The position numbers were made by a program, and so were the translations under genes. Shown here in pieces: positions 785 to 59,612 of a DNA stretch of 64,000 bases (the first letter of the stretch is position 1; each line of letters starts with the position of its first letter). The stretch is from Dehalococcoidia bacterium. Lineage in GTDB: Bacteria; Chloroflexota; Dehalococcoidia; Lucifugimonadales; UBA3495. The notes under the pieces are model-generated. The model was not told the origin of the DNA. It saw nothing but the letters and a program-made list of their open reading frames with translations, and did not search any database. The DNA lies in contig OY761986.2 in assembly GCA_963665155.2 (NCBI GenBank), forward strand, positions 215,789-279,788, given 5' to 3'.

Positions 785-1018
785 GTGATGGTTTTTGACC
801 ACGCCTACCCGGACGGCGGAGCGGCACGTCAGAAAGTCCTAGCTAAGTTGCTGCTGTTTGCCGACAATTGTTTACCGAGCGCAGCCGTGATGGTGCGGGA
901 GCATCGCTGCGTCTGCTACGTCTTGGTATCCACGGACAGGGCAGTTTTGGCAGACGCCATGCAAGGGATGCGCGACGAACTCCGCATCCCTTGCCGCTGG
1001 CTCGTGCCGGGACCATGA
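785..1018 (+). CDS. hypothetical protein (77 aa)
   Basis: ORF starts 24 nt after the previous one, with AAGGGAAG upstream. No family recognised. Confidence 0.2.
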   Translation: MMVFDHAYPDGGAARQKVLAKLLLFADNCLPSAAVMVREHRCVCYVLVSTDRAVLADAMQGMRDELRIPCRWLVPGP

Positions 1019-1207
1019 AATTCATCTCCCCAAGGCTGTCTGGTAACCAGGGTTGGTGAATCCTCTATGGACACTGTGTCCAAAGCGCGAACGTCGGAGA
1101 AGCCTGGGCTTTGCATACTGATTTTGGTTCCGGTGCTGATTTACCAACCCCGGCAGTTTGTCACCTACGAAAACCAGCACTGGTTTCGGAATTCTTGTAA
1201 CGTCGGA

Positions 1208-1613
1208 CTAAACGCCTTCCGTCTTTGGTTGTGTCAACATCGCGGAGTAACCCCGCTCATCGACCACGTGGGTCACCGACACCCGGCCCCGGCTGTCGTA
1301 GCCGGTGGTGTAGGCGAACTCCACCTCGGCGCCCCAGGGAACGCGCCCGCCGATGCGCACGGTGCCGCCGCCTGGGTTGCTGCCGCTGTGCGGCCCGCCG
1401 GCGCCCTTGACCACCACGCCGTTGCGTGAACCCTTCTTCCAGGCCATCACCTTCAGTTCCACCGGCGCCACCTGCTCCGCCGCCGTGGGCTGGAACAGGA
1501 CACCGTGCAGCCGCCGCAGCACGTCCCCTGACGCGTTCCGCTGGCCGTTCATGATCTGGGAGAGATGGCCGGTGCTGATGCCCGCCAGCCGGGCCACCTG
1601 GTTCTGGGTAAGG
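1208..1613 (-). CDS. multi-HTH (XRE-like) DNA-binding protein, 3' exon: fifth HTH module plus ~95-aa uncharacterised C-terminal domain
   Basis: The frame is open up to 1613. LTQNQVARLAGISTGHLSQIMNGQRN matches the repeated HTH modules of 4037-4860. The ORF-track GTG start (1597) lies inside that module. TAG stop at 1208. Confidence 0.6.
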
Positions 1614-1670
1614 TAGGCCGCCGGCGAGTTACCCCGTGTTACCGGAGCACTTTTCCGTCGGCCCCCTTCC

Positions 1671-1704
<34 letters not shown>

Positions 1705-1713
1705 TCCAGTGTC

Positions 1714-3576
1714 TTATGCTTCGCAGTTGGGTACATGGTTGGCGTTGGCCCCCTGTTTCAGCGGACGCCCGGCGTGGATGTCCGCGTGGCAGGACCCACA
1801 GCCCACCAGCGTCTTGCGACGCCGCTGGGCCATCATCACCACCCAGGTGGGCCGTTCAGCCCGGCCTTTCTGTCGCAGGTCTTTCAATGCCCGTATGTGG
1901 TGCACCTGGACTTTCACCCTGGAGCCGCAAAGCTCGCAGGTGTCGGCCAGCAGGCGCTGTACGAGTTCCGTCCGACCGTTGATGATGGGGGGATGTTCGT
2001 CAACCAGGGTAGCCGTGGTGTCGCGCGCCAGGGATACGCCTCCCCAGTAGGTTGCCAGCGGTTTCTGGCCTGGGTGTTCTTCCTTCACCATCAAGACCTT
2101 TCGGGGGCCTTGTTCCGTCTGAATCGTGGTCTTGTACGGCTTGAACACCTGGGGGACGCTGATTCTCAGCTTGCCCGCCAGGGTCTTGGCCAGTGACATT
2201 CCCATGACCCACTGTAGATAGCTTAGAGTGCCCAGCTTGGCCGCCAGCCGGTAGTAGTTGGCGACGCCCCGGAACTCCGCCTGATACAGGTGCACGATGC
2301 TGTAGGGCGAGTCGTGCCGCCGTTCCCCGCGGTGCCAGGGTTTGCCTTTTGCCATGTATTTGGCGCTTTTGACGCGTACAATGTCCCGGGGGACGCGCAG
2401 CCCGATGACGCCGTTGACCGCGCGGCGGCCCTGGGCGTCGAGCTTGGTTGCGCTCTCCTGGACGGTGACCTCGTAGCCGAGGAACCGTGCTGCCTCGGTG
2501 CGGCCGTGGGTGAGCAGGGTCTTGGACTCGGAAAGCTCCAGCTTGAGGCTATCGCCCAGGAACTCCCCTATCCGGTTCTTGATTTCCTCGGCCTCGTTCC
2601 TTGGCCCCGCGAATCCGAGCAGGAAGTCGTCGGCGTACCGAATGTACCGCAGGCGCCGGTATTCCGGGTCGTGGGTGTTGCCATAGGGCAACGACCGAAG
2701 GATAGGGCGCAAGGACGCCGCCTCCTTTTCACGTCCGGCTTTCCGCAGACCTTGCATCTGACGGACGGTCCTGCCATATTCCGGGTTTTGCCGCCGCCTT
2801 TCACCCCGGTTGTAGGCGGGCAAGAGCACTCCCTCCACGAACCTGTCCAACCGGTCCATGTAGATGTTGGCGAGCATGGGACTCACGATGCCGCCCTGTG
2901 GCGTGCCACTGTAGGTGGCGTGGCGCTTCCAGTCCTCCAGGTAGCCAGCCCGGAGAAGCTGGGAGACCAGCCGCAGGAAGCGGTTGTCGCGGATTTTCTC
3001 GCGCATTATCTCCAGCAGCACCGAATGGTCGATGTTGTCGAAGCAGCCCGAGATGTCCCCCTCGACGAGCCAAGTGGTGCCTGTCCAGGTGCGGGAGATT
3101 TCCGTGAGCGCCGTGTGGCACCCCCGGTGGGGCCGGAAGCCGTGCGACCGGTCGCTGAACTGCGGTTCGTAGTACGCCTCCAGTAGGAGACGCATCACTT
3201 CTTGCAGCACCTTGTCCGACCACGTGGGCAGGCCCGGGGGCCGCCGCTTCCCGTTGGCTTTCGGGATGTATACGCGGCGGGACGGAGTCCACCGGTAGCG
3301 CTCGAAGCGGAGGGCCTCGATGATTGCGCTGATGTCCTCCAGTTTCATCCCATCTGCGGTTTCCCGCGTTGCGCCTGGAGTGAGCGCGCCGTCGTTGCTG
3401 GCGATGCGCCCGTAGGCCATGAGGTACAGGTCCGGGTTCCAGAGTTGGCGGTAGAGGTCGTTCACGGGCAGGCCCCGTGTACCTCGGTCGCGAATGATTC
3501 CCAGTACGGTTGTGGCGTTGCGCATCTCGCGCACCTTCCTTTCTGAGTTTCGAAGACACCTGCCTCCCTTTGCCAT
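1714..3576 (-). CDS. group II intron reverse transcriptase/maturase with C-terminal HNH endonuclease domain
   Basis: 620-aa ORF with RT motifs PQGGIVSPMLANIYM and RYADDFLLG (YADD), a maturase region, and a C-terminal CELCG...HHI...CGSCHADIH motif. The start may be Met18 (3525). Confidence 0.95.
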   Translation of the reverse strand: MAKGGRCLRNSERKVREMRNATTVLGIIRDRGTRGLPVNDLYRQLWNPDLYLMAYGRIASNDGALTPGATRETADGMKLEDISAIIEALRFERYRWTPSRRVYIPKANGKRRPPGLPTWSDKVLQEVMRLLLEAYYEPQFSDRSHGFRPHRGCHTALTEISRTWTGTTWLVEGDISGCFDNIDHSVLLEIMREKIRDNRFLRLVSQLLRAGYLEDWKRHATYSGTPQGGIVSPMLANIYMDRLDRFVEGVLLPAYNRGERRRQNPEYGRTVRQMQGLRKAGREKEAASLRPILRSLPYGNTHDPEYRRLRYIRYADDFLLGFAGPRNEAEEIKNRIGEFLGDSLKLELSESKTLLTHGRTEAARFLGYEVTVQESATKLDAQGRRAVNGVIGLRVPRDIVRVKSAKYMAKGKPWHRGERRHDSPYSIVHLYQAEFRGVANYYRLAAKLGTLSYLQWVMGMSLAKTLAGKLRISVPQVFKPYKTTIQTEQGPRKVLMVKEEHPGQKPLATYWGGVSLARDTTATLVDEHPPIINGRTELVQRLLADTCELCGSRVKVQVHHIRALKDLRQKGRAERPTWVVMMAQRRRKTLVGCGSCHADIHAGRPLKQGANANHVPNCEA

Positions 3577-4036
3577 GTACCAGGCTTTCCCTGGCTCAGA
3601 CTACTACGGAGGCTCCGTTGCCATAGGACTCGCGTCCCGTAGGCAATCCAATGTTCCTCGATAGCAAACGTGATAGCGCGACTTAGGTGCCTCTTTCGTT
3701 CCCTTGAGCGGGGTCATTCCCCGCTGTCTACCTGTCGGGAAATCCCGGCCACCTACAGCCATTGGCCGGTGAACAGGTAGCTTCGCGTTGTAGGTGTTGT
3801 AAGCGAAGGACGGCACGTTTCATCACTGAGAACTGAGGTTCAAGCAGTGTAGCTTTCACCATATCGCGCGGGTCTTGCGGAGCACCGGCCTAAACACCTT
3901 CAGCCGGTCTCCGCTTTTCCCACATGCTATGGTCCCCTTTGGCTTTCGCCGCCAGGTAAGTGGGCTGACCCAGGGGCATCTTCCCGAGCCCCTCTCGCCT
4001 TGAGCAAGGATTTAACTATCGAGTGACATTGCGCAC

Positions 4037-4860
4037 CTGTAACCGTGGGCATCCATGCGGTCCCACAAGGCGCGCGGGTCAACGTCGCGAGTTTGAGCGG
4101 CCTCGACCCTGGCCGGGCCGTCCAGCGCCGCCTCGATCTTGGCCTGGAAGGCAGGACCCATGTTCCGCTGGCCCCGCGAGGCCTGGATCAGGTAGCCGTA
4201 GGACACCCCGGCCCGCTCCGCCAGGCCCTTGAGGCTCATGCCCTTCTCTCGGGCGCGCTCCCGGATGTAGGTGGTTTCCCCTTTCACCGGGCCGCCCTGG
4301 CGGTTTGCGCACACGGCGGGCGCGATCTCCACCTGACCGCCCAGAACCTTCTCCACCCGGGCCTGGACCGCCGGGCTCATGTTGCGGCGACCCCGGCATA
4401 CGTCGGACATGTAGCCTGCGGACACCCCCACCCGCTGGGCCAGGTCCTTCTGGCTCAGGCCCAACTCACGGGCCTGCTCCCGGATGGAAGTACTCTCGCC
4501 CTGCACCAGCCCGCCCTGGCGGTAGACGATCCCCTGCCCCGGCACCTCGCCCAGGACCGCCATGGCCCTCTCCCGCAGCATGGGAGACCAGGGCCGGCGC
4601 CCGCTGGCCACCGAGGACAGGTAGCCGTAGTTCACGCCCATCTTCTCCGCCAGTTCCTTCAGGGTGAGGCCCTTACGCCGGGCCGCTGCCCGCAGTTCGC
4701 TCTCGGGCTTGCCCCGGTGCGCCGTCTCTTTCTCCGTTCCGGCGTGCGCCTCCGTGTGCTGTAGAGTGTCGATGTCGCCGTGGCCGTCTCCCAAGCCGTT
4801 GAGGCTGGCCGTCACGTTGTGGGTGATCTCCGTCCTGTCGATGATGGTAATCGCCTTCAT
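4037..4860 (-). CDS. multi-HTH (XRE-like) DNA-binding protein, 5' exon: four tandem HTH modules
   Basis: Start chosen at ATG 4860 (MKAITIID), with GGAGGAAG 5 nt upstream. Contains four repeats each with an XRE-type helix-turn-helix, e.g. KGLTLKELAEKMGVNYGYLSSVASGRRP. The ORF-track stop at 4012 lies inside the intron. Confidence 0.65.
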
Positions 4861-4986
4861 GTCGCTTCCTCCGAAAGGCGAAAAGCGAGGCCGGCCCGAA
4901 TGGACCGACCCCGCTCTCCGGTTAAAGATGCAGGTCGTTGGGTGCGGTCCATTCAGCCGCTCTGGTGTCCGCCGGCGAAACACGAA

Positions 4987-5030
4987 GAGCGGGGCCGCCT
5001 CCCCCTCAGTTGGGAGAGACGACCCCGCTC
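4987..5030 (-). terminator. GC-rich stem-loop upstream of the multi-HTH gene
   Basis: Arms GAGCGGGGCCG / CGACCCCGCTC with nested CTCCC/GGGAG pairing. On the minus strand it is followed by TTCGTGTTTCG. Function unproven. Confidence 0.35.
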
Positions 5031-6439
5031 GTTGGCGCCTATTCGATTGTCAGTGGCGGCCCCACGGAGCCGCCCCGGTTGCCGCCGCGCCGTGCTTTGG
5101 GCAGCGGCCCTGGGTTACCGCCGGTTCACGGGTTGCTCCAACCGGCCCGTAGTGAAAAGAGATTCCAGGTTATGGTCGTTATCCAGCACCTCCTAGTTGT
5201 TCTCGTTGATCCGTCGCCTGTTGCTGACGTTGTTGTCGCCGATGGCCTGCCACAGCTGCTGCCCTTCGCGGGGAGCGACGCCATTCCACCGGCCATCGAT
5301 ACCCTCCCGTGTCTCACCGCGCTGGACACACTACGCCCACGGTCTGGGTCCGCCATGTAAATGCCGGAATAGTGGGTTGGCGCAAGACGCACCAGGCCCA
5401 GGGTCGAGCGCCGCAACGGAGGACAACGGAATGAGCGTTGGCGGAAGGCGCGGTTAGCCCAGGGTGAAGGTCAGCCGCTCAATCCAACCGCCGGGCGCAA
5501 GACGCACTGGGCCCAGGGCATTACAGTGCAATGTAGAACGCCGATTTCGGGGGTTGGCAGGAATGCGGTTCGCCGAGGTTGAAAGTCGCTGGGCAACCGC
5601 TGTGAGAGGAAATGGGAGAGGAACGCACTGGGGCCAGCGGCCACGCCGCTGGAAACCGCGTTGCAATGGCAAGCGTCCGATCTGCTGTTCTCCAGCGACC
5701 GGAGCGTGTTGAGAATGCGGTGCCGCTGCTCTTTGTGCGGCAGCTATGCCGCAGTGATGATGAGACAGCCGAAACTTGTCAGCATTTCCGACCGTAGCGT
5801 GAAGGGGCAGCGAAGCATGTCAACCGCTCCGCCAAGGAAACCGATGGGTAATGGGAAGCTGGGGTCGCCGTGCTGTTTCCGGTTGCCACCTCCTCGAATC
5901 AGTCCGTGGGGCAGGAATGTCGCCATGGATGGGGATACCGGGTGAAGCGCACTGGCGCCTCGGGGAATGTCTCTCGCAGACACCCGTCGGGAGAGCGGGG
6001 CTCGATCCCTCTGAGCAGGTCCGGCATGGGCGGCCATTCGGAGAGCAGGGCTCGATCCTATGCGGCCAAACCCGGGTCCAGGGACGGGACCCTCCAGTTT
6101 TCTCGGCTGGAAACGCTGGCAAAAGCCTGACTACGTAATCCAGTATCCGGCACCGGGTTGCCCCTGGCAAGACCACAAGCGTTCTGACAGCGAAAGTGTT
6201 GCCTTTTGTTGCTCTAAACTCTAATTGCAGGTCCGGGGCCGGAGTCGTTCACCTCCATGATGCAGTCCCTGGGGTCGGGGTTCCGTACCATGGGTCAGGG
6301 TTCACCGGCCGCGGGTAGAGTGTCAATCACTCCCACCAGGCAGCAATTCCCTGGTGGGCGCTCCGGGGAGAGAAGCCTCGATCCTCACGGAGCAGGCCCG
6401 GGTGAACAGGGATCACGACCCCGGCAACTGTCTTTAATG

Positions 6440-6990
6440 TCAAGAGGAAATAACGACGATTGCCGGAGTCATGTCGCTCCAGGATGAGCGATGCTTGAGC
6501 ATGGCGTTGAGGATGACGAGCAGCTTGCGCATACAAGCGACCAGGACCAGCTTCTTCGGCTTGCCAGCGGCCAGCAGCCGCTGGTAGAAGTCCCGGATGA
6601 CCGGATTGACAGCGCACCCCGCCACCGGAGCCTCAGATACTACCCGACCCTTCCCACCCCGGTCCGGTGATTGAGCATCAGCAACCGGGCCGCGCCCTGG
6701 TGAACCCGCTGGTGCGCCATCCGGTTCACCAGGGCCATGACTCAGCTCGTACACGTTCACCACGCCGCCATCACCGCCGCAGTTGCCAGCGTGGGCCAAC
6801 CGGCTTCCAGCGTCGTTACTCTAACCCGCCGCCACGGTCCCGTCTCTACCGCCATCACCGCACCGAGCACCCGAGACTGCTCTCCTGTTCCCCTCGCCAA
6901 CCTCGCCGCCACCAACTCACCGGAGCCAATGCTGCCGCCGCTGCCCAGCCCCGGCCACAAGCCCCGGCCCCCTCCCAATCCCTGGGGGGC
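6440..6990 (-). pseudogene. IS110-family transposase remnant (C-terminal part, decayed)
   Basis: 6440-6619 encodes NPVIRDFYQRLLAAGKPKKLVLVACMRKLLVILNAMLKHRSSW, the conserved IS110 C-terminus. Another frame at ~6760-6960 gives IGSGELVAARLARGTGEQSR, which resembles the GIG...LLAELG motif. No N-terminal catalytic domain was found. Confidence 0.55.
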
Positions 6991-7148
6991 AAAATGTATT
7001 TCCCCAATAGGGGCCTTGTCCCCCTGTCCCGAATCCGGCGGGGTACAGCGATGTACCTTTCCAATAGGGCCGATGCACCCCCTGATCGGAACCTGCCCTG
7101 GAATCCAAGTGCTTACACCAATTAGGCTGAAATGGGCGGATTGCCCCC

Positions 7149-7220
7149 ATTTCAGCTACGAATTCCCCGCCACAGACCAATGTGCTCCAAGTCCACATTC
7201 CTGTACACGTCCATAACGTC
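7149..7220 (+). repeat. repeat family member A1 (ATTTCA - 46 nt - CTGTACACG - YATRAC)
   Basis: ATTTCA starts at 7149 and CTGTACACG at 7201, an offset of 52 nt. It pairs best with A2, sharing CAGCTACGAA and CCAAGTCCA. Confidence 0.8.
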
Positions 7221-8380
7221 GAGCCGGACCCCGCAAATACCGCGCCCTGAAAGGGGGGGTGCGCTCACCCCCGCCTGGCGCTAACCGGGGTCATCAGGCC
7301 GTGGATATTCGCGGACCTCCGGCCACCGCCCCGGGGTCAGCGCCTGCCACGCTCAGTCAGCAACTCCGGCACACGTCACCCCGCCCCAAGAGTGCAATTC
7401 CTGCAATACAATCCATACAATCAGGTTGACACCGAGCGTCAACAAACTCACTGCCCGTATCGCCCTCCAGACCCACGAATCCAGGTTCATTTGCCTTTGA
7501 AATCCCGCCGGTGGCATTCAGCGGCGCAGTTCAAATTCCCTTACAGGGCTCCCACTGTGAAAATGGCCCCGGAGCGTTTGCACTTTGCCGTTGCCGCCCC
7601 TGAGCCGTACCGCCTGCCCGGCCTCACCGCCACTGGCCGTCAACGCCAGCGCGGCCCGCCGTTGCCCGCCTTGAGCCCTTCTCCGGGGCCATGAGAGAGG
7701 AATCAAACCAGGACTCGGAGTCGGGAGCAACGCCACGCCGACGCCGTTTTGCTAATCGGGGTCGCCAGGTCAGCGATATTCACGGTCATCCAGTCACCGG
7801 CTTGCCTCCGTGGAAACCGCCGGCATCCAGCCCCGGCTTCAACCAACGCGCCACTCCGTCCCCCCCCCCGGCTGCTGGCAACATTGCGAACGCCACCAGC
7901 CGGGGCTGCGAATCCTTTGCGGGACAGGGGCTAAACCAAAGCCGTCGCCGTCCAGGTCCTGTAAAGGGACTTCGCCCATGCTATTCAGCCTGGCGACAAG
8001 TATGTTCATCACGGTGCCAGGACCTCTGCCAGACCCGTTTTCCTGTTCTACCCCGCCACGGCGCGCCAGGTGGGAAGGGGGCTTTAACTGGGTCAGCCAC
8101 ACTGCGCTGGCATCGCCGGCCCTGCGCCACCGGCCTGGCCATCTTCCCCACGCATTGCCCGGCCCCGCCGCCACCTGGTCTGACGCCGCCGCCCACCACG
8201 TCAATCACACCAGCTTTCTTCATGGGCTATCCGCGCCGGACCACTACACCCCGCTCTCGTCGCTCGCTCCAACTTTGCTGGACGTTCACTTCCCAAAAGG
8301 GAAGTCAACCCCGATTTTCCGGAACCAGCCCTTTCCCCGGATTGCTTGCAGGAACCGTCCAAATGCCCCGTTTTTCGCCG

Positions 8381-8452
8381 ATTTCACGTTCAGAAAGCCC
8401 CCGACTTCCCGAAAGGGAAGTAATCCGGATCCCTGTACACGGGTATACCATT
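8381..8452 (+). repeat. repeat family member B1
   Basis: ATTTCACGTT starts at 8381 and CTGTACACGGGTATA at 8433, an offset of 52 nt. The interior holds the hairpin ACTTCCCGAAAGGGAAGT. Confidence 0.8.
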
Positions 8453-9111
8453 ACATCCCGACCTCCAACCCCCCCGGCGTCCCGCTCCAGCTCATTTCCC
8501 TGCGTATTCCGGCCCTGGTCAACGCCGACGCCCGTCGCATCACAGCCAGTGCCAGTCCGCTCATTACCTCATGGGTGACGCATGGAGGTTGCCGCCGCCG
8601 GGACCCCGAAACCGGCTGCCACCGGCCCAACTTGGACAGGCTGACAAGAATGCTCCCTTCCGTTCCTGACACTTCCTGTAGGGAGCCTTGGCACAAAGCT
8701 GAAATCCGGCGCTCCAACCCTGTCAGACCCCTGGGGACCAAGCCGGGGGCATTCTGTTGCAGAACCGGCGCCTCGGCCAGCCCAGCGCAGGCCGCCGAAC
8801 CCCGTAGCCCAATCACCGCGTTCAGCTCGATGAAGCGTTTGACGTGCCAGGTTTGACACGTAATGACGGGAGAATACACGGCCGTCCGGGCATCACCCTG
8901 CCCATCCCGCCGCCGGCCAGCCTGTCAGCTTGGCCGGGGAACCGCCGAGGTCGGCCCCGGCGTATTACCAATTAAGGGCAGTGGGGAAACCCTGTCCTGA
9001 CCGGAGAATATACCTTGTTCCGTGGTAGCGCGTTTCCGAATCGTGGCAGCGGCAACCCGGGCCGCCGGTCCATCCGCAGGGTTGCCCGGGGCCGCTGGGG
9101 AGGCGAGGACC

Positions 9112-9450
9112 GTGGAACTGGACACTGTCAGGGTTAACGGCATGGTGATAGCCAGGGCCGAAGGCCGCGTCGACAGCGCCAATGCCCGGGAGTTCCAGGA
9201 GGCTTTGGAAATCGCCGCGGCCGGTGGCGTCCGGGCTGTCATCCTGGACCTGGAACTGCTGTCCTACATCAGCAGCGCCGGCCTACGGGCCATCCTGATA
9301 TTCGCCAGGGACCAGGAACGACCGGGCGTGAAGTTCGCCGTCTGCTGCCTCTCCGAGCCGGTGCGCCGGGTCTTCTGGGTCCGAGGCTTCGACCGGGTGA
9401 TTCGGGTGGCCGCCTCCCGGGAGGAAGCAATCAACGACTTTACCGGCTGA
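9112..9450 (+). CDS. STAS-domain protein (SpoIIAA-like anti-sigma-factor antagonist)
   Basis: VELDTVRVNGMVIARAEGRVDSANAREFQEAL...LDLELLSYISSAGLRAIL. GTG at 9112 is preceded by GGGGAGG. The ORF is open from 9022. Confidence 0.7.
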   Translation: MELDTVRVNGMVIARAEGRVDSANAREFQEALEIAAAGGVRAVILDLELLSYISSAGLRAILIFARDQERPGVKFAVCCLSEPVRRVFWVRGFDRVIRVAASREEAINDFTG

Positions 9451-9754
9451 ACTCCCCACACCGCCCGCCCAGCCCGCACGCCGTTCACTGTGTCCAGCGT
9501 GATGACGTGAGACTACTCGCAGGCCTGGCGCCTCACGAGGTCGCCGACCCGTTCTGGCAGCTCGTCCCCGCCGCCGTGATCCTGGACCTCACCGCTTACA
9601 ACGGGGAATTACGCTTGATTGCCTGACCCGCTGAAGCAACCACATCGCTGACAACGCCTGAGTCCCCCGCGCCCTGGTCAGCATCACCGCCGCGACCGTC
9701 CCCGCTGCCTGCCCGGACCAGCCAGACACCATCTCCCGGCCCCGTCCCAACCGG

Positions 9755-9899
9755 CTGGACAGACTGTCCGATTTCGTAACTGGCACTGTCCAGCGGGGGT
9801 GGAAGCTGCTCTGGAACCCGGGTGCTCGCTGGATACGTCCTGTAGGGGCCTATCTCCCCCGATTTCACGTTTGACTGGACAGAATTGGACAGTTGTCCA
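9755..9899. promoter_or_regulatory. cluster of TGGACAG / CTGTCCA motifs (operator-like)
   Basis: GGACAGACTGTCC palindrome at 9757-9769, CTGTCCAG at 9786-9793, and TGGACAG at 9876 and 9886 followed by TGTCCA at 9894. Confidence 0.4.
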
Positions 9900-9933
9900 C
9901 CAACTCCCAATTTCTGTACACGGGTATAACGTA
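9862..9933 (+). repeat. repeat family member B2
   Basis: ATTTCACGTT starts at 9862 and CTGTACACGGGTATA at 9914, an offset of 52 nt. Confidence 0.8.
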
Positions 9934-9956
9934 CTTGCCGCCGCCGAAAACCCCGC

Positions 9957-9996
9957 GCCACATAAGGGAGGACGCGCGCGTCCTCCCTTATGTGGC
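9957..9996. repeat. perfect 40-nt palindrome
   Basis: GCCACATAAGGGAGGACGCG|CGCGTCCTCCCTTATGTGGC. Every position was checked as self-complementary. Confidence 0.95.
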
Positions 9997-10068
9997 ATAC
10001 GCGCTCCCGCAGCTTGGCCGGGCCGTGGAAGCCATCTCCCGGCCCTCCCGGGTGGATCATCCGGCCCG

Positions 10069-10105
10069 CCCTCCCCCGTGGGGCATTTTGCCCCACGGGG
10101 GAGGG
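10069..10105. other. 15-bp perfect stem, 7-nt loop hairpin
   Basis: CCCTCCCCCGTGGGG cattttg CCCCACGGGGGAGGG. Confidence 0.9.
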
Positions 10106-10133
10106 CCGTGCCCCATCACGCCCGGAATCCCCA

Positions 10134-10149
10134 TGTTCCACGTGGAACA
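10134..10149. promoter_or_regulatory. parS-like 16-bp palindrome
   Basis: TGTTCCACGTGGAACA compared with the ParB-binding consensus TGTTNCACGTGAAACA. There is one mismatch, plus the N position. It lies ~20 kb from dnaA. Confidence 0.45.
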
Positions 10150-10239
10150 TTTCGTAGCTGGCCGTACCCCATGGCCCTGGAACCAGCCCTTCCCAGAAAG
10201 TGTTGCCTGAATTGGCCCCAAACCCCCCGAAATTCCCCT

Positions 10240-10311
10240 ATTCCAGCTACGAAACTGGTCCCCTGCCCCGTCCCGCCCCAAGTCCAAATCCCTGTACACG
10301 TCTATGACATC
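10240..10311 (+). repeat. repeat family member A2
   Basis: ATTCCA starts at 10240 and CTGTACACG at 10292, an offset of 52 nt. Confidence 0.8.
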
Positions 10312-10335
10312 ACCACCGGGGCGTGGCGCCTGAAA

Positions 10336-10373
10336 CCCTATAAGGTGGTTCATCTGTGAACCACCTTATAGGG
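10336..10373. other. 17-bp stem hairpin
   Basis: CCCTATAAGGTGGTTCA tc.. TGAACCACCTTATAGGG, followed by GGTTTGT. Confidence 0.85.
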
Positions 10374-10459
10374 GGTTTGTCCCGGAACAGCCGCCCATCA
10401 GACTGGAAGACAAAGGCCGGTTCCGGCGGGTAATTGACGCCGGCAACCGGGGGAGGGAT

Positions 10460-10684
10460 ATGATGCGAAAGAAGAAAGGCAAGGGCCGCAGAGACCAGAC
10501 CGGCAGGGCGGCCACGTACCCCGTCGCCGCGCCTCCGGTCTACACGGCGGAGCAGCGGGAGACGGTGCGGCGGGGGCTGCGCGTCCTGGCCAGGATCATC
10601 GCCCGCGCCCACCTGCGGCGGCAGGCGGAACGGGCGCGCGTGCACTGCTCCGGTCCACCGCTAGAGGAAAGGGCCGATGCATGA
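10460..10684 (+). CDS. hypothetical small basic protein (74 aa)
   Basis: GGGAGGG lies just upstream of tandem ATGs. The Arg-rich helical-looking segment is RETVRRGLRVLARIIARAHLRRQ. No family recognised. Confidence 0.3.
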   Translation: MMRKKKGKGRRDQTGRAATYPVAAPPVYTAEQRETVRRGLRVLARIIARAHLRRQAERARVHCSGPPLEERADA

Positions 10685-10745
10685 TGCGTTCCCGTGCCCC
10701 CCCGATGCCATCAACTCACCACCAGCCATCCCAACCCTTTCAATG

Positions 10746-10766
10746 ATTCCCTATTAGGAATATAAT
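10746..10766 (+). promoter_or_regulatory. candidate TA promoter: ATTCC-N6-GGAAT inverted repeat overlapping a TATAAT box
   Basis: TATAAT at 10761-10766 ends only 6 nt before the ATG at 10773, and there is no spaced SD. This suggests a leaderless transcript. The -35 element is weak. Confidence 0.35.
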
Positions 10767-10772
10767 GGGGTC

Positions 10773-11135
10773 ATGGCCTGGGAGGTTGAATACACGGACC
10801 AGTTTGGGCAGTGGTGGCGCGACCTGTCGGAGGACCAGCAAGACGCGGTGGCCTCCAGGGTTGAGTTATTGATGGAGCACGGTCCCAACCTGCCCTACCC
10901 CTATTCCTCGGATATAAGGGGTTCACGCCACGGGCGGATGCGAGAACTCCGGGCACAAAGGGCGGGCAGGGCCATCCGGGTCCTGTACGCCTTTGACCCC
11001 AGGCGGACATCCATATTGCTAATCGGCGGCGACAAGACGGGCAACGACCGATTCTACCATGAGTACGTGCCCATAGCCGACGACCTTTATGACGTGCATC
11101 TGGAAGAACTACGTGAGGAGGGGTTAATCGAATGA
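10773..11135 (+). CDS. type II toxin, RelE/HigB-like (Gp49-type addiction-module killer)
   Basis: 120 aa. The motif ...RMRELRAQRAGRAIRVLYAFDPRRTSILLIGGDKTG... is typical of this family. It overlaps the downstream HTH gene by 4 nt (ATGA). Confidence 0.75.
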   Translation: MAWEVEYTDQFGQWWRDLSEDQQDAVASRVELLMEHGPNLPYPYSSDIRGSRHGRMRELRAQRAGRAIRVLYAFDPRRTSILLIGGDKTGNDRFYHEYVPIADDLYDVHLEELREEGLIE

Positions 11136-11467
11136 GCGGACGTCATTCCTTCAGTGAACTGACAAAGGACTTCACCCCGGAGCGCCGGAGCCGTATCGAC
11201 GCCATGAAAGCCGAACTGCTGGCGGATATGCCGCTACACGAACTGCGCCGGGCCAGGGCGTTGAGCCAGCGAGACCTGGCCGAGCGGCTGAAAGTAAACC
11301 AGCCGGCCATCGCCAAGCTGGAGCGGCGCGCGGACGTGTACGTCTCCAGCCTACGGTCCTACATCGAAGCGGTGGGCGGGAAGTTGAAGATCATCGCCGA
11401 GTTTCCCGAAGGCGAGGTGGCAATTACAAACTTCTCCCACGTGGGAGAAGGCGAGGACGGCCCATAG
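11132..11467 (+). CDS. XRE-family HTH antitoxin (HigA-like)
   Basis: LHELRRARALSQRDLAERLKVNQPAIAKLERR is an HTH motif. The gene is translationally coupled to the toxin gene. Confidence 0.8.
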   Translation: MSGRHSFSELTKDFTPERRSRIDAMKAELLADMPLHELRRARALSQRDLAERLKVNQPAIAKLERRADVYVSSLRSYIEAVGGKLKIIAEFPEGEVAITNFSHVGEGEDGP

Positions 11468-11554
11468 AGGGCGGAGAAGGCGTCGTTAGTCTTTGGAAGG
11501 TGAAAGAACTGAACACCGGGCTGAGGCGGCGAGTACGGGGCAGCCCTGGAAATT

Positions 11555-13240
11555 ATGACGACCCAGACGAACATCCTCTATCCGATTGCCCGCAGCGACT
11601 CCGGACAGGCAGTGCACGTAGGGGAAGCCTCTAAAGGCTGCTCCTACGAATGCTTCGGATGCTCCGCCCCGATGGTGGCCAAGCAGGGCGGCAAGCGGCG
11701 GTGGCATTTCGCTCACAAACCTCCCTTTGAACGCTGCGCCGACCCGGACAAGGCACTACACGATACGGCCAAAGCCCTGATTATGCAGGGCTTCTCAGGC
11801 GCCCTGGCCCGGCAGGGCGCCTATCGCCTGGGGTGTCCATGTGAGGAATGCGGTAGGCCAGTCTCCCGGAATATCGCGGTCCCAGGGGCCAAGGTGGAAG
11901 CGGAAAAGAGTGTCGTGGCGGGTACCCGCTCCGACCTGGTGGTCAATCAGCCCGGTAGAGGCCCGGTCATCATCGAGGTAGTGGTCACTCACGACCTGGA
12001 ACCGGAGTCCCGCGAGAGTTATGAGAAGTCGGGGACTCCGATCCTGAAAATCCGTCCCACATGGGACACGCTGGACAAACTGGAGTCAGAGGTCATATCA
12101 GACGATACTCTCAACGTTCCGCCCGTCCGTTGCGCCTCGTGCAAGCGGGCAACGGAACGTCGGCGTCGTGAACGGGAGCAGATTCAAGAGCGCGTCGATT
12201 CGATGCTCAGGCAATTGAATGAACGGCGGCAGCCGGACCAGGGCAAGTTCCCGTTTCGCCCCTGGACGCACGACCAGTTTGAGCGGCCCATGTTCCCACG
12301 CATACGCCAACAGGCGTACACCAACGCCCTTATCTTGACCGGGTCGGGGTTTGTCCAAGCCAAGCAGAAGCCGTGGCTGTTCTTGTTCCGGCTACCGGGC
12401 GGCGTTTTCTTCGCCAACTTCGGGTCAAACGAAGAAGTTGCGATCTGGGAAGACCCGGCGGCTTTCATTCACTGGAAGCTGGACAGATACTCAGAGGAAA
12501 TAGAGAAGGCCACCAGCCGAGTTGAACGCTTCCACTCCCAGTTTCTGGCGGATGCGCTGTGCGAGAGTTTGAAAGGAGACCGGTCGTTGTTCGACCAGGT
12601 TTGGACATTGGTTGCCCCGTCCGGTTGGGAGATTCCACAATGGTCAGACCAAGTTAGAGTTGTACCAGAGCAAAAGGTGGAGGGAGGCCGTGTGGACATC
12701 TGCATTCACTGCTTTGCTCCGCAGGACCGGGTTGTAGGGATTGAAATCAAGACAGTGGAAGACTCAACCGAGCCTGGTCAGTTGGAGCGGTACCGCGCGG
12801 GCCTGAAGAGAAAATTCTGGGAGTCCGAGATACAGATTGCTTACCTCACGCCTTTCAACAGGGAACATGCTGGAAATGGGGCCGACTCACTCCCCACTGT
12901 TATGGAGTTCGAACGATTCAAACGATTGAATCCCGAGGCGCGCCCGCGCCATGTGAGTTGGCTCGACCTGGAAAGCATACCCTGGGATGGCGACCCGTTG
13001 TGGGAGCAACATCGAGCCTACGTGCGCAACCACATTTCGTCCCCCCAGAACCGACGGGCGAGTGTGGAGCAGAACCGGGATCTGGCCTTTTTCTTTGGTG
13101 TGGAACCCGCTGAACGCTTTTGGGCAGAGGTTCGCGCATTGACGGTAAAGGAAGAGGGCAAGCGCGTCTTCATAGACTTGGCAGACCAACCAGACCCTTC
13201 TGCGGTCGCCAAATCGCTTGTAAGAGAGCGTGTCCCATAA
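11555..13240 (+). CDS. CoiA-like nuclease domain fused to a second PD-(D/E)xK-like domain (561 aa)
   Basis: The N-terminus has YECFGCSAPMVAKQGGKRRWHFAHK (CoiA-type Zn motif) and RSDLVV...VIIEVVVTH. The C-terminus has GRVDICI...VVGIEIKTVEDSTEPGQLERY (D...E.K motif). Confidence 0.65.
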   Translation: MTTQTNILYPIARSDSGQAVHVGEASKGCSYECFGCSAPMVAKQGGKRRWHFAHKPPFERCADPDKALHDTAKALIMQGFSGALARQGAYRLGCPCEECGRPVSRNIAVPGAKVEAEKSVVAGTRSDLVVNQPGRGPVIIEVVVTHDLEPESRESYEKSGTPILKIRPTWDTLDKLESEVISDDTLNVPPVRCASCKRATERRRREREQIQERVDSMLRQLNERRQPDQGKFPFRPWTHDQFERPMFPRIRQQAYTNALILTGSGFVQAKQKPWLFLFRLPGGVFFANFGSNEEVAIWEDPAAFIHWKLDRYSEEIEKATSRVERFHSQFLADALCESLKGDRSLFDQVWTLVAPSGWEIPQWSDQVRVVPEQKVEGGRVDICIHCFAPQDRVVGIEIKTVEDSTEPGQLERYRAGLKRKFWESEIQIAYLTPFNREHAGNGADSLPTVMEFERFKRLNPEARPRHVSWLDLESIPWDGDPLWEQHRAYVRNHISSPQNRRASVEQNRDLAFFFGVEPAERFWAEVRALTVKEEGKRVFIDLADQPDPSAVAKSLVRERVP

Positions 13241-13303
13241 ACCCTCTTCCCGGGGGGTTGGTGAAGCAGTAATCTGATAGAAACAACTGGCAGGCACGAT
13301 ACT

Positions 13304-14716
13304 ATGGCTTATAACCTTTTGCGCTGCGAGCGAGACCAGAGCTACTTGATGCCGCCGTCCATGAGGGATTGGTTGAGCGAGGGTCACCTGGCCTGGTTCA
13401 TTGTGGATGCAGTAGGCCAGATGGATCTGAGGGAGTTCTATGCAGCCTACCGAAGTGATGGCTGGGGTGCAGCGGCCTACGATCCGGGAATGATGGTGGC
13501 CATCCTGTTGTACGCCTACTGCCTGGGTCTACGCAGTTCCAGGCGCATAGCCCGCGCTCTCGAGGAAGATGTAAGTTTCCGGGTGGTGGCGGCCAACCAG
13601 CAGCCAGACTTCCGTACCATCTGTCGCTTTAGGGCGGAGCACGAGGAGGCGCTCGAGAAGCTCTTTGTAGAGGTACTGAGGCTATGCCATGAAGCGGGTC
13701 TGGTGAAGCTGGGGGTAGTGGCTCTTGATGGGACGAAGGTGGCAGCCAACGCGGCGCTGGCCACCAACCGGAGCCACCAAGCCATTGAGGAAGAAGTGCA
13801 GACGCCTCTCGTCTCTGGCCTCCATCAACTCGTGGACCAGGGCGGCGGCGGTGGTGAAGAGGATGCCCATTACGGTCCCGACCGGCGAGGGGATGAGCTA
13901 CCGGAAGGGCTGGGGGGACGGACGGAGCGGCTCAGGCGCCTGAAGGAAGCCAAGGAACGTCTGCAGCGGGAGGCTGAAGCAGCAGCCAGGGCTGTCCAGG
14001 AGCGCGTGGAGCAACGGCGGGCAGAAGAAGTGGCCACAGGCAAAAAGAAGCGGGGGCGCAAGCCCAAGGTGGTAGAGTCACTTCCTACCGAAGAGGCGAA
14101 GGCTAATACCACCGACCCGGACAGCCGCATCATGAAGACCAGGCAAGGGTACGTGCAGGGCTACAATGCCCAGGCGGTGGTGAGCGAGGGGCAGATCATA
14201 GTAGCCGTTGGAGTGACCCAAGGGGCCAATGATGTGCAGCAACTGGAGCCGATGCTCCAAACCATGGCGCATACTCTGAAGGCAGCCGGCATAGAGGACC
14301 GGCCAAAAGCGGGCCTGGCCGATGCCGGGTACTGGAGTGAGGCCAACATCAGGGCTTGCTCCTGGCCGGAGATGCCTGAGCTTCTTATTGCCACCACCAA
14401 GGATTGGAAACAGCGGAAGATGCTACGGGAGAAGGGGTGTCCCCGAGGACGTATACCAAAAGGACTGAGCCCGAGGGACAGGATGGAGCGCAAGCTGCTG
14501 ACAAAGCGAGGCCGAGCTCTGTACAAGAAGCGGGGTGTACTGGTGGAGCCGGTGTTCGGACAGGTCAAGGAAGGACAGGGGTTCCGACGGTTTATGAGAC
14601 GGGGGTTGGGCGCTGCACAGAGTGAGTGGTCCCTGGCAGGGATGACCCATAACTTGCTCAAGCTATGGCGCAGTGGCCAAGCCCCTTGGGGCTGGGCCCA
14701 GGCCCCACGGAACTAA
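13304..14716 (+). mobile_element. IS1182-family transposase gene (IS fills the 13241-14853 gap; ends not resolved)
   Basis: 470 aa. The N-terminus MAYNLLRCERDQSYLMPPSMRDWLSEGHLAWF...SSRRIARALEEDVSFR is characteristic. The C-terminus has PVFGQVKEGQGFRRFMRRGL. Confidence 0.85.
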
Positions 14717-14853
14717 GAGAGGCAGACGACCTTTCTGGGGGCCGACAAGCGGCCAGTGGAACTGGACGGGCCGACCTCTCTTGAGGCCCATCGCTCCCAC
14801 ACCTGTGTTAGTCAGCTCGCCCACCGGTCTATGAGACAAACTCTGAGGTTTAC

Positions 14854-15141
14854 TCACTTTGGAACGTTCAGTTCAGGGAATCCGGCAGCGCGGTGTTCCT
14901 CGAAGAGTTGGTAGAACTCCTCGACCGTCATCCCGAAGGCCTCACGGAAGACTTCCGGCCAAGTGGTGCCGGGTTGCTTCAGCGCCAAATAGTAGCGAAG
15001 CAATCCATGCTCTCCGACTTGGGATGCCAGCAGCTCCACGGCCAGTAGGAAATAAGGGTATCGGTTGGGTATGTTCCTGATTTGATCCTGGACAATCATT
15101 TCCCGCAGGGGTATGTCGATGCGTTCGGCTCTCGACACCAA
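14854..15141 (-). pseudogene. C-terminal (fourth) module of the peptidase-MA-like protein, out of frame with 15096-17174
   Basis: FLLAVELLASQVGEH...EAFGMTVEEFYQLFEEHRAAGFP repeats the module ending seen three times upstream. The frame change occurs at C5 run 15142-15146. Confidence 0.6.
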
Positions 15142-58091: not shown

Positions 58092-59603
<1,512 letters not shown>

Positions 59604-59612
59604 TTAAAACCC

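Follow-up and report, generated by a model that had tools for sequence, protein, structure and literature searches.

Among the closest described systems are two kinds of control region. Gram-positive conjugative elements are controlled by divergent promoter/operator switches, such as Pc/Pr of pLS20 (Rco) and immR-Pxis of ICEBs1 (ImmR), and the SXT/R391 and IncA/C elements carry boxes for a master activator (SetCD/AcaCD), which are present also in mobilizable genomic islands. To our knowledge, hardly any conjugative element of the Chloroflexota, or of sponge symbionts at large, has been characterised. Here we analysed four related repeats in a 64,000-nucleotide stretch of a Dehalococcoidia genome (the window). 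They belong to a family of modules, each an approximately 250-base control region that heads transfer operons of conjugative or mobilizable elements in uncultured sponge-associated Dehalococcoidia, and are an undescribed variant of the familiar switch-region kind rather than a new class of element. Literature searches on conjugative elements of Chloroflexota or sponge symbionts gave no description of the element family, and a literature search with the conserved 9-mer of the module returned unrelated primer matches only.

As in the pLS20 and ICEBs1 switches, an HTH regulator gene diverges from a long conjugation operon, several putative regulator sites are spread across a 200–400 bp intergenic region, and each long transfer operon has a single control region. 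Unlike those switches, the modules occur in the phylum Chloroflexota, lack sigma70-like −35/−10 elements, combine one scaffold with at least five interchangeable putative operator types, hold an invariant 9-mer and a perfect palindrome of 36–44 bp at fixed distances, and, besides forming heterotypic arrays, recur before the operons for the relaxase and the recombinase. Like the SetCD/AcaCD boxes, one cis motif stands before mating-pore, DNA-processing and excision operons, and modules are found also in elements without a type IV secretion system (T4SS), as known boxes are in islands that ride on a helper. Unlike the approximately 20-bp SetCD/AcaCD box, the conserved unit of the module spans approximately 130–250 nt with fixed internal spacing, and its type-specific palindromes point to added repressor control.

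Four modules in tandem

The sequence CTGTACACG starts at positions 7201, 8433, 9914 and 10292 of the window, each time on the + strand in a search of both strands; no further copy exists on either strand of the whole window and its reverse complement is absent. In 4/4 copies ATT(T/C)CA starts exactly 52 nt before CTGTACACG. The pattern ATTYCA-N46-CTGTACACG (two mismatches or fewer) gave 4 matches in the window versus 0.11 expected, and the extended core TCCNNATNNCTGTACACGNNYATRMC (three mismatches or fewer) gave 4 versus 0.01, so that the four same-strand copies at fixed 52-nt spacing described in a sequence-only reading of this DNA are confirmed, against a chance expectation of 0.01–0.11 matches. 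The strings by which that reading had divided the copies into two subtypes were likewise found (CAGCTACGAA and CCAAGTCCA in A1 and A2; CCGATTTCACGTT and CTGTACACGGGTATA in B1 and B2), as were its three downstream hairpins at 7253–7272, 9957–9996 (20/20 pairs, without a loop) and 10336–10373 (17/17 pairs). The repeat is longer than had been supposed, at approximately 250–300 nt. A third conserved block, GGAACCWGCYCT, had been overlooked upstream of ATT(T/C)CA at 7088, 8321, 9801 and 10179, at distances of 113, 112, 113 and 113 nt from the core in the four copies in order; a near-perfect palindrome at approximately +46 belongs to the repeat; and each copy has its own palindromes upstream, with an interior one in addition in the B copies. 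Each of the four copies in the window retains an intact core and three intact scaffold blocks. The features are as follows:

1208–1597: C-terminal part of a multi-HTH regulator, split from the N-terminal part by a group II intron
4012–4983, − strand: gene for the N-terminal part of the multi-HTH (Cro/C1-type) regulator
6986–7272, + strand: module A1 (type A1), profile (nhmmer) score 115
6986–6999 and 7042–7056, + strand: upstream palindromes of A1, degenerate
7088–7099, + strand: block 1 of A1, GGAACCTGCCCT
7126–7136 and 7146–7156, + strand: inverted repeat of A1, GCTGAAATGGG/CCCATTTCAGC, spanning the ATTTCA of the sequence-only reading
7192–7217, + strand: core of A1, TCCACATTCCTGTACACGTCCATAAC, followed by a GC hairpin at 7253–7272
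8289–8449, + strand: module B1 (family type D), profile score 76
8289–8304 and 8405–8420, + strand: two occurrences of the B1 palindrome, upstream (CTTCCCAAAAGGGAAG) and interior (CTTCCCGAAAGGGAAG)
8321–8332, 8378–8389 and 8424–8449, + strand: block 1, block 2 and core of B1
9757–9996, + strand: module B2 (type B), profile score 109
9757–9769 and 9786–9792, + strand: upstream palindrome of B2, GGACAGACTGTCC, and half-site CTGTCCA
9801–9812, 9859–9870 and 9905–9930, + strand: block 1, block 2 and core of B2
9876–9898 and 9957–9996, + strand: interior TGGACAGAATTGGACAGTTGTCC of B2 and its perfect 40-bp palindrome
10068–10373, + strand: module A2 (type A2), profile score 104
10068–10106 and 10134–10149, + strand: upstream palindromes of A2, the first holding TGGGGCATTTTGCCCCA, the second TGTTCCACGTGGAACA
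10179–10190, 10237–10248, 10283–10308 and 10336–10373, + strand: block 1, block 2, core and downstream palindrome of A2
10460–10684, + strand: gene encoding a basic protein of 74 aa, its start 168 nt beyond the core of A2

A2 is the sole window copy that still has its native downstream gene. Downstream of A1 there is no credible ORF and no codon-phase signal, an ORF and codon-phase scan found no ORF downstream of B1, which is also without a downstream palindrome, and a Pfam search with the small ORFs of 5100–8900 gave no match. B2 has an identity of 0.84–0.90 to three orthologous arrays.

Module types, regulators and operons across genomes

Scanning 185,579 genomes with the core pattern revealed 54 loci, of which approximately 47 were taken as true, almost all of them in metagenome-assembled genomes of Dehalococcoidia/Chloroflexi; the remaining 7 or so look like chance matches. 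A profile search yielded 80 copies (76 in 47 loci and the 4 in the window), on one strand within any locus and with tandem arrays of 2–6 same-strand copies. Both searches were anchored on CTGTACACG, which inflates its apparent invariance. When 78 distinct copies were compared, those of the window included, 60 had an ATTYCA-like block at −52, so that the spacing of the two end motifs is kept family-wide, and approximately 60 had GGAAC at −113 or −112. The scaffold consensus reads GGAACC.GCCCT at −113, cccc.ATTTCAG at −56 and, for the core, Tcc.aAT.CCTGTACACG..tATgACa at −9 to +17, with core conservation that is contiguous and at the sequence level. Combined with the −52 and −113 blocks, the core TCCNNATNNCTGTACACGNNYATRMC forms a compact signature by which metagenome-assembled genomes can be searched for these elements and for degenerate relatives of them.

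Intact elements carry one module between a divergent gene for an approximately 300-aa HTH regulator and a T4SS operon that encodes a secreted 205–220-aa protein, TrbL/VirB6, a T4SS pilin, and PrgI-like and VirB4-like proteins. Further modules head either an operon of small-protein, MOBC-like relaxase and excisionase-like genes, in that order, or a serine-recombinase operon. The first downstream gene, from four gene families, lies on the module strand in 64/65 cases (T4SS head 46/46, MOBC-like protein 7/7, RHH 5/5, serine recombinase 6/7), and its start codon is approximately 160 to 190 nt from the core; the operon-head position and co-orientation expected of a transfer-operon promoter/operator region were thus found in 64 of 65. 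In locus L056 an A2 module precedes genes for a 71-aa protein, a MOBC-like protein and an xis-like protein, and a D module follows xis, before an antitoxin-like gene and a recombinase gene; modules ahead of successive operons are a regulon-like pattern. Homologues of the 74-aa protein of the window (71–101 aa) open the operon in intact elements, directly preceding the gene for a 673-aa protein; in the window, HigB/HigA-like genes come next and there is no relaxase gene. The multi-HTH regulator gene reads away from the module region in all MOB-type loci. Searches of NCBIfam and PDB with the relaxase-like, 74-aa, regulator and secreted proteins gave no match.

The sequence-only reading had regarded the interiors as free; they instead carry type-specific palindromes of at least five kinds, and the type tracks the clade of the adjacent HTH regulator. 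These palindromes are 14–16 bp long; two lie upstream, types B and D have a further one in the interval from block 2 to the core, and the five kinds that were compared occupy equivalent positions in the module. Module type equals the clade of the neighbouring regulator in 29/29 loci, and the regulators diverge in the HTH region; repeated dyads are thus matched to an adjacent putative DNA-binding regulator, as in the control region of a transfer operon, although linkage alone could cause the agreement. A near-perfect palindrome of 36–44 bp begins at approximately +46. Compensatory base changes, which had been proposed as a check, were found at 14/18 of its pairs with almost no wobble, and it is selected for perfect Watson–Crick symmetry, centre included.

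Promoter/operator cassette, transfer origin or relic

We favour, with modest confidence and from sequence comparison, the reading of the module as a non-σ70 promoter/operator cassette. Each repeat would be one modular cis-regulatory cassette at the head of transfer operons of integrative conjugative or mobilizable elements of Dehalococcoidia. The core would act as a non-sigma70 promoter or as the binding site of a family-wide factor and would fire the operon to its right; the type-specific palindromes would be operators for the cognate HTH regulator encoded divergently beside the module, in which case the types, at least five, would represent regulatory specificity groups on one shared scaffold; and the +46 palindrome may act on the leader or as a DNA hairpin. 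One scaffold with interchangeable palindromes (putative operators) that track the regulator lends itself naturally to work on the diversification of regulatory specificity among mobile elements.

When the window modules and three intact intergenic regions were scanned for the sigma70 consensus (TTGACA-like −35 and TATAAT-like −10, 16–18 bp apart), no match came up. In the core, the nearest ‘−10’ is YATRAC, without the usual T at its end, and A(A/G/C)TCC stands in the ‘−35’ place. The host rRNA promoter is canonical (TTGACA-17-TATACT), and the three intact intergenic regions hold no sigma70-like promoter; the operons therefore require a promoter of some other kind, for which no candidate but the core is universally conserved. 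The B2–A2 pair has an identity of 0.84–0.86 to three orthologous arrays versus 0.73 for the adjacent ORF and 0.61 for the pre-array spacer, and is apparently under purifying selection. Some observations fit the promoter/operator reading less well: A1 and B1 have no downstream ORF and therefore no obvious job as promoters, and may be relics, and the perfect symmetry of the +46 palindrome is unexplained by a promoter model.

Among described promoter kinds, a sigma-54 promoter was rejected, with the GG/GC in “TGGAAT…TGCTT” one base too close and the arrangement varying between copies, as was an ECF-type promoter (GGAAC-N17-TGCTT, or AAC-N16-CGT around the core), whose spacing and letters are inconsistent across types. 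A Frpo-like single-strand promoter was also rejected: no sequence in the window is complementary to the core. The surroundings of TGTACA resemble the LexA, NtcA, PhoB-box and P2 Ogr-type dyads only in part.

In the main rival reading, possible though on balance unlikely, the module serves as an origin of transfer (oriT), either by itself or in overlap with a promoter. A relaxase of MOBC type (PD-(D/E)XK, restriction-endonuclease-like) would nick in or beside the palindromic TGTACA of the core, and the type-specific palindromes 100–250 bp away would be binding sites that give the relaxase or an accessory protein its specificity. The inverted repeat of the oriT would be the +46 palindrome, and in elements that have no relaxase, such as that of the window, heterotypic arrays would make it possible for several helper types to mobilise a hitchhiking island. 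The first intergenic region upstream of a relaxase gene is heuristically taken to comprise oriT (PMC12857230; bioRxiv 10.64898/2026.01.13.699239), and a module lies directly upstream of the genes for the small basic protein and the 673-aa protein, whose family often has PF13814 (Replic_Relax), which corresponds to the MOBC relaxase class (PMC5357655, Table 1). In this placement, upstream of a small-protein and PF13814-type gene pair, in the large inverted repeat and in candidate specificity repeats far from the conserved site, the modules resemble the MOBC oriT of pAD1 (oriT2/TraX). The pAD1 relaxase TraX has an N-terminal wHTH and binds repeats 70–120 bp from nic (PMC12857230), a distance paralleled by the fixed long-range spacing of the modules. 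Consistent with an oriT are also the absence of sigma70 features from the core, the lack of RNA contigs over the modules and the +46 palindrome, which looks DNA-level because of its compensatory changes at 14/18 pairs and almost no wobble. Orphan modules in islands without a relaxase are like oriT islands, and islands with oriTs only are reported to be common (bioRxiv 10.64898/2026.01.13.699239), which agrees with this reading.

Several points argue against an oriT. Unlike pAD1 oriT2, the modules occur in several copies per element or in tandem arrays, are strictly co-oriented with downstream genes, and in some cases head T4SS operons that have no relaxase gene nearby. An oriT should be functional at a single site per element, whereas arrays of 2–6 and two separate places in L056, before different operons, were found; as oriTs, same-strand tandem arrays should give partial transfers. 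DNA contigs of four runs contain no joints between modules. Neither the co-orientation nor the constant 160–190 nt to the start codon is needed by an oriT. The Replic_Relax match of the query protein is weak (E = 0.007), and the relaxase-like protein has no NCBIfam or PDB relative. Were a PD-(D/E)XK relaxase to nick the core, the core would mark the oriT for a class of relaxases that is poorly understood. The window array would then be, as the first of its kind, an oriT array with multiple specificities, centred on a restriction-enzyme-like (MOBC) relaxase with TGTACA as its cutting site.

The window holds a decayed mobilizable element, in the order multi-HTH regulator gene, approximately 2 kb without genes, array, 74-aa gene and foreign genes at the relaxase position. 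Its copies lie inside an integrated mobile element whose family is undescribed, so that the concern of the sequence-only reading that they could be parts of a known IS or prophage repeat applies only loosely. The gene-poor array holds four cassettes of four types in tandem, A1–D–B–A2, and is intact in DNA contigs of three runs, with a single contig across 6572–9986; the order A1–D–B recurs in three other genomes with type C in fourth place. A tentative and rather unlikely suggestion is that this heterotypic array (A1–D–B–A2/C, four genomes) is a functional multi-input device of a hitchhiking island, with cassettes keyed to the regulator or relaxase of different helper types. If so, an element without a T4SS could sense, or be mobilised by, several co-resident conjugative elements. 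The modules also suit the study of how T4SS-less islands couple to helpers.

It is quite improbable that the window copies are instead non-functional relics, operon heads whose bodies were lost in the decay and rearrangement of nested or tandem elements, and equally so that the order common to four genomes reflects descent from one decayed island, not function. Such loss would agree with the missing ORFs downstream of A1 and B1, with module types in the array that head different operons elsewhere, and with a region where an IS, a high-copy IS-like fragment and a group II intron are present and no T4SS, HTH-regulator or relaxase protein remnants were found between the copies. Decay is seen elsewhere, in a type C module fused to a 3′ fragment of a relaxase-like gene (L008) and in broken regulator genes (L015 and L041). 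Against relics, conservation is higher in B2, A2 and their palindromes than in the ORF and spacer next to them, the cores and scaffold blocks of each window copy are intact, and the A1–D–B–X order persists despite large indels between modules.

RNA and other element classes

Of the two earlier proposals, a DNA site recognised by a protein or a family of small structured RNA genes, the DNA site is supported, as the control region of a transfer operon, and the RNA gene is not. That each copy is a small RNA gene or structured RNA element is very improbable: the strong hairpin after 3/4 copies, the covariation of the hairpins and the ORF-free stretches between copies would suit it, but there is no Rfam match even at E ≤ 1, the hairpins have no U-tails, the palindromes are symmetric through their centres with almost no G–U pairs, and the part of the module that is best conserved does not pair and is constrained in sequence. 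Rfam searches gave no match for the whole window at the gathering threshold and, for 4900–10800 at E ≤ 1, only spurious miRNA matches on one palindrome. The short transcripts for which an RNA-seq check had been proposed did not appear in four sponge metatranscriptomes: assembled contigs, which drop rare RNAs and would come from normally repressed transfer operons, cover neighbouring genes and neither the modules (at 90% or 80% likeness) nor the 74-aa ORF of the window genome. RNA contigs identical to the window start only at approximately 10780, and the module of a related intact locus (L006) is likewise without RNA coverage. Strand asymmetry of folding energy was uninformative because the minus strand folds better through being G-rich.

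Other classes were rejected. An intrinsic terminator was called by a terminator scan for 0/3 hairpins, whose flanks are ATACGCG, GGTTTGT and GCCTGGC. A MITE or IS end does not fit copies that are confined to conjugative-element loci at a fixed position relative to genes, and no terminal inverted repeats were found around the modules. Like integron attC arrays, the modules are same-strand repeats 0.4–1.5 kb apart with conserved ends and variable interiors, near small cassette-like genes (STAS, toxin–antitoxin); unlike attC, they are homologous to intergenic regions of conjugative elements. Their two ends are not complementary and show no R''/R' pairing, the reverse complement of CTGTACACG is missing from the window, no RYYYAAC/GTTRRRY motifs are visible in the module sequence, and no integron integrase is present among the scanned ORFs.

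In a test for parS, a 16-bp palindrome of TGTTNCACGTGAAACA type, the upstream palindrome of A2 at 10134–10149, TGTTCCACGTGGAACA, fits TGTTNCACGTGNAACA and is kept in three other loci (L009, L040 and L043). Because its central four bases vary in other A2-type loci (ACCT, ACAA, AAAA and TCGT), the parS-like match looks like one allele of a TGTTCC-N4-GGAACA palindrome.

A four-copy module and its relatives

Exact counts in the 64-kb window gave four copies of CTGTACACG, all on the + strand and each with ATT(T/C)CA starting 52 nt upstream, and none of its reverse complement, in agreement with the sequence-only reading, which had reported four same-strand copies at this spacing and nowhere else in the window; the subtype strings and three hairpins that it described were likewise present. 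The pair ATTYCA-N46-CTGTACACG gave 4 matches at up to 2 mismatches against 0.11 expected, the extended core TCCNNATNNCTGTACACGNNYATRMC gave 4 at up to 3 mismatches against 0.01 expected, and a profile of the four copies matched nothing else in the window. Aligning the copies over 260 nt revealed a third conserved block, GGAACCWGCYCT; the ends and spacing first described are real, but the repeat is longer.

Module A1: core 7201, + strand; GGAACCWGCYCT at 7088, 113 nt upstream
Module B1 (type D): core 8433, + strand; GGAACCWGCYCT at 8321, 112 nt upstream
Module B2 (type B): core 9914, + strand; GGAACCWGCYCT at 9801, 113 nt upstream
Module A2: core 10292, + strand; GGAACCWGCYCT at 10179, 113 nt upstream

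The interiors, earlier taken to be free, carry a palindrome specific to each module type at equivalent positions:

Type A1: GGTGCA-N3-TGCACC
Type A2: TGTTCC-N4-GGAACA
Type B: GGACA-N2-3-TGTCC
Type C: GTTGYA-N4-TGCAAC
Type D: CTTCCC-N4-GGGAAG

Two palindrome copies lie upstream in each module, each followed by an ATTTC-containing scaffold to which the ATTTCA noticed earlier belongs; in type A1, ATTTCA doubles as the 3′ arm of an 11-bp inverted repeat, and types B and D have an additional palindrome copy between the ATTYCA-like block and the core.

A core-pattern scan of one genome per species (185,579 species) revealed 54 loci, about 47 of them in Dehalococcoidia/Chloroflexi metagenome-assembled genomes (MAGs), several with sponge-derived bin names. 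The other 7 or so (among them Planktotalea, Streptomyces and Roseobacter) fit chance in number; neither they nor the sole viral-contig match carry the remaining parts of the module. Searching with a profile of the region −125 to +25 around the core found 76 copies in 47 loci in addition to the four in the window; copies within any one locus share one strand, about 30 loci have a single copy and the others have arrays of 2–6. CTGTACACG was exact in 76 of the 80 listed copies, an invariance that is partly circular because both searches were anchored on the core. Among 78 distinct copies, 60 have the ATTYCA-like block at −52 and about 60 have GGAAC at −113 or −112. The conservation profile of the core reads ccaa.Tcc.aAT.CCTGTACACG..tATgACa, with secondary peaks at cccc..TTtcAg (−57 to −46) and ggaa.c.gc.ct (−113). 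Outside Chloroflexi, one locus alone has a complete A2-type module (Candidatus Binatia MAG; profile score 89), owing either to horizontal transfer or to mis-binning.

The order A1-D-B-fourth module recurs in three other genomes, with type C replacing A2 in fourth place:

L001 array: cores 5681, 6010, 6739, 7018
L008 array: cores 2731, 3054, 3983, 4252
L032 array: cores 3777, 4191, 5099, 5379

The B2-A2 pair was found again in four loci (L009, L040, L043 and L007). In comparisons with three orthologous arrays, identity is 0.84–0.86 for the modules, 0.73 for the 74-aa open reading frame (ORF) and 0.61 for the pre-array spacer. DNA contigs from three metagenome runs span 6572–9986 unbroken, and none from any of four runs contained joints between modules.

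A near-perfect palindrome lies about 46 nt after the core. Compensatory base changes, a search for which the sequence-only reading had proposed, were seen as double changes in 14 of its 18 pairs across 19 copies of types A1, A2 and B, with wobble in only 4 cells; the centre is usually self-complementary too (CGCG, GCGC, CCGG), and no U-tract follows. Selection acts on the symmetry itself, and the palindrome has the look of a DNA-level rather than an RNA feature. Longer A2-type versions (L007, L009, L030, L003) contain GAACC-AGG-GTTC, a match to GAAC-N4-GTTC, the core of the LexA (Cheo) box in Gram-positive bacteria; the window's shorter A2 palindrome does not contain it.

Gene context of the modules

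In single-copy loci a gene for a ~300-aa protein with a weak helix–turn–helix (HTH) match lies divergently to the left of the module, and an operon begins about 158–174 nt past the core on the right, encoding a secreted 205–220-aa protein, a TrbL/VirB6 homologue, a type IV secretion system (T4SS) pilin, and PrgI-like and VirB4-like proteins. Farther left are primase and Rad52-like genes (by Pfam) and exonuclease-like, SSB and RadC-like genes (named by reading the sequence only), which together with the T4SS operon indicate an integrative conjugative element.

Modules also occur in a T4SS-less unit, ordered as a multi-HTH gene (− strand), a gene-poor stretch, the module(s), genes for 71–101-aa, 673-aa and 112–127-aa HTH_17-like proteins, cargo and a large serine recombinase. 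The 673-aa family has >1,200 homologues, many with a precomputed match to PF13814 (Replic_Relax), the MOBC relaxase class (PMC5357655). The gene-poor stretch has 2–6 kb without confident genes in all loci with this relaxase operon; in the window, as in L042/L056, it is about 2 kb long. Modules stand also ahead of RHH or antitoxin-like genes and the recombinase; in the single element L056, the relaxase operon is headed by an A2 module, and past an excisionase-like gene comes a D module. The first downstream gene is co-oriented with the module in 46/46, 7/7, 5/5 and 6/7 cases across four gene families. In two genomes (L005/L042(L056) and L029/L058) a T4SS-operon module lies ~23 kb from a relaxase-operon module and the operons converge, reflecting either one ~45-kb element with two arms or a conjugative element with an adjoining integrated mobilizable element.

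Candidate functions of the module

We lean towards reading the module, from its sequence and context, as a promoter/operator cassette, because of its orientation and constant distance to start codons, because the operons that modules precede in one element are of three kinds, and because palindrome type agrees with regulator clade. This agreement held in 29/29 loci, the regulator HTH region differing by clade (SPRTLTRF in B, DPRTVAAS in A1, DRKTMWRS in A2); it fits putative operator/repressor pairs and could also come from linkage alone. No sigma70-like promoter was found in three intact intergenic regions and the host rRNA promoter is canonical, suggesting that the transfer operons need a non-canonical promoter, for which the core is the sole universal candidate. 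In sponge metatranscriptomes, contigs identical to the window covered 5589–6066 and, with short gaps, about 10780–13086; those over the 10773–13240 region begin at about 10780–10789 and end at about 13086. None covered the window modules, even at 80% likeness, and a related intact locus likewise had no RNA coverage over its module.

That the module is an origin of transfer (oriT) is rather unlikely, although a MOBC-like gene adjoins it, its core includes a palindromic hexamer, TGTACA, and the +46 palindrome appears to act at the DNA level. Such a hexamer would suit a restriction-enzyme-like nuclease. In plasmid pIP501, for example, promoter and oriT functions overlap. An oriT would also accord with the distant bind sites of pAD1 TraX (PMC12857230) and with the reported commonness of oriT-only islands (preprint 10.64898/2026.01.13.699239). 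It is improbable that orphan copies are relics. Of the two possibilities first raised, a protein-recognised DNA site survives as the favoured promoter/operator cassette, and an RNA gene family is very improbable.

A conjugative-element control region is an already known kind of feature. Four aspects appear undescribed here: the element family; its scaffold, shared by five or more interchangeable palindrome types; an invariant core whose long-range spacings are fixed; and heterotypic arrays that are conserved between genomes.

Two symmetric sequences lie upstream of the A2 core:

10068–10106: perfect 18-bp inverted repeat with a 3-nt loop, GCCCTCCCCCGTGGGGCA ttt TGCCCCACGGGGGAGGGC, window-unique
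10134–10149: TGTTCCACGTGGAACA, perfect 16-bp palindrome fitting the parS pattern TGTTNCACGTGNAACA

The second is kept in L009, L040 and L043; because its central four bases vary in other A2-type loci, the site is more likely an allele of the type A2 palindrome than a centromere. The first, with 0.38 identity to orthologous arrays and TGTTCC/GCCCCA half-sites in its place in other genomes, resembles an operator variant that has recently become symmetric.

The array and its surroundings in the window

The window holds a decayed mobilizable element in which A2 alone heads its native gene; at the protein level, no remains of T4SS, regulator or relaxase genes were found in the window. GC content is 0.61–0.68 at 1,000–15,000 against about 0.55 for most of the remainder, and codon-phase GC gave no coding signal over about 6,900–9,000 or most of 9,480–10,400. 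The 16S rRNA gene indicates that the window is chromosomal.

1208–1597, − strand: multi-HTH regulator gene, C-terminal part
about 1608–3974, − strand: group II intron (Rfam Intron_gpII match 1608–1706)
1714–3576: 620-aa ORF inside the intron, putative intron-encoded protein
4012–4983, − strand: multi-HTH regulator gene, N-terminal part
9022–9450: STAS gene
10460–10684: gene for a 74-aa basic protein
10773–11467: Gp49/HigB-like gene and HTH partner
11555–13240: CoiA/PD-(D/E)XK-like gene (CoiA_N, 561 aa)
13304–14716: DDE transposase gene
58092–59605: bacterial 16S rRNA gene

The Gp49/HigB-like and HTH pair and the CoiA_N gene (10773–13240) occupy the relaxase-operon position of intact elements. 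The intron interrupts the regulator gene (1208–4983), whose two parts jointly align with uninterrupted ~327-aa homologues in L042/L056, and the gene may still be functional if the intron splices.

The ~1.5 kb at 4990–6450, in the gene-poor position of the T4SS-less units, is 70–95% conserved in many related loci, most strongly at 6040–6146 and 6298–6422, and has no coding signal or Rfam match, and the RNA contigs over 5589–6066 fall within it; it contains three copies of GGCGCAAGACGCAC..GGCCCAGGG at 5376–5519 and three GAGAGCRGGGCTCGATCC-like units at about 5990, 6040 and 6360, and may be a large non-coding RNA. Metagenome contigs over 6424–6660 have a depth of 500–8,500x against about 20x in the flanks, and RNA contigs are abundant too. 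A 41-residue stretch of its minus-strand translation, which had no Pfam match, presumably resembles the C-terminal tail of IS110-family transposases; an intact IS110 transposase occupies the equivalent position in L057. The STAS-domain gene lies in a ~630-bp insertion relative to L040 (segment 8864–9518). The repeats TGACGGGAGAATACAC (8864) and TGACGTGAGACTACTC (9503) flank this insertion, and TGACCGGAGAATATAC at 8998 is a third copy; the insertion could be a small mobile cassette, or recombination at short repeats could have produced it.
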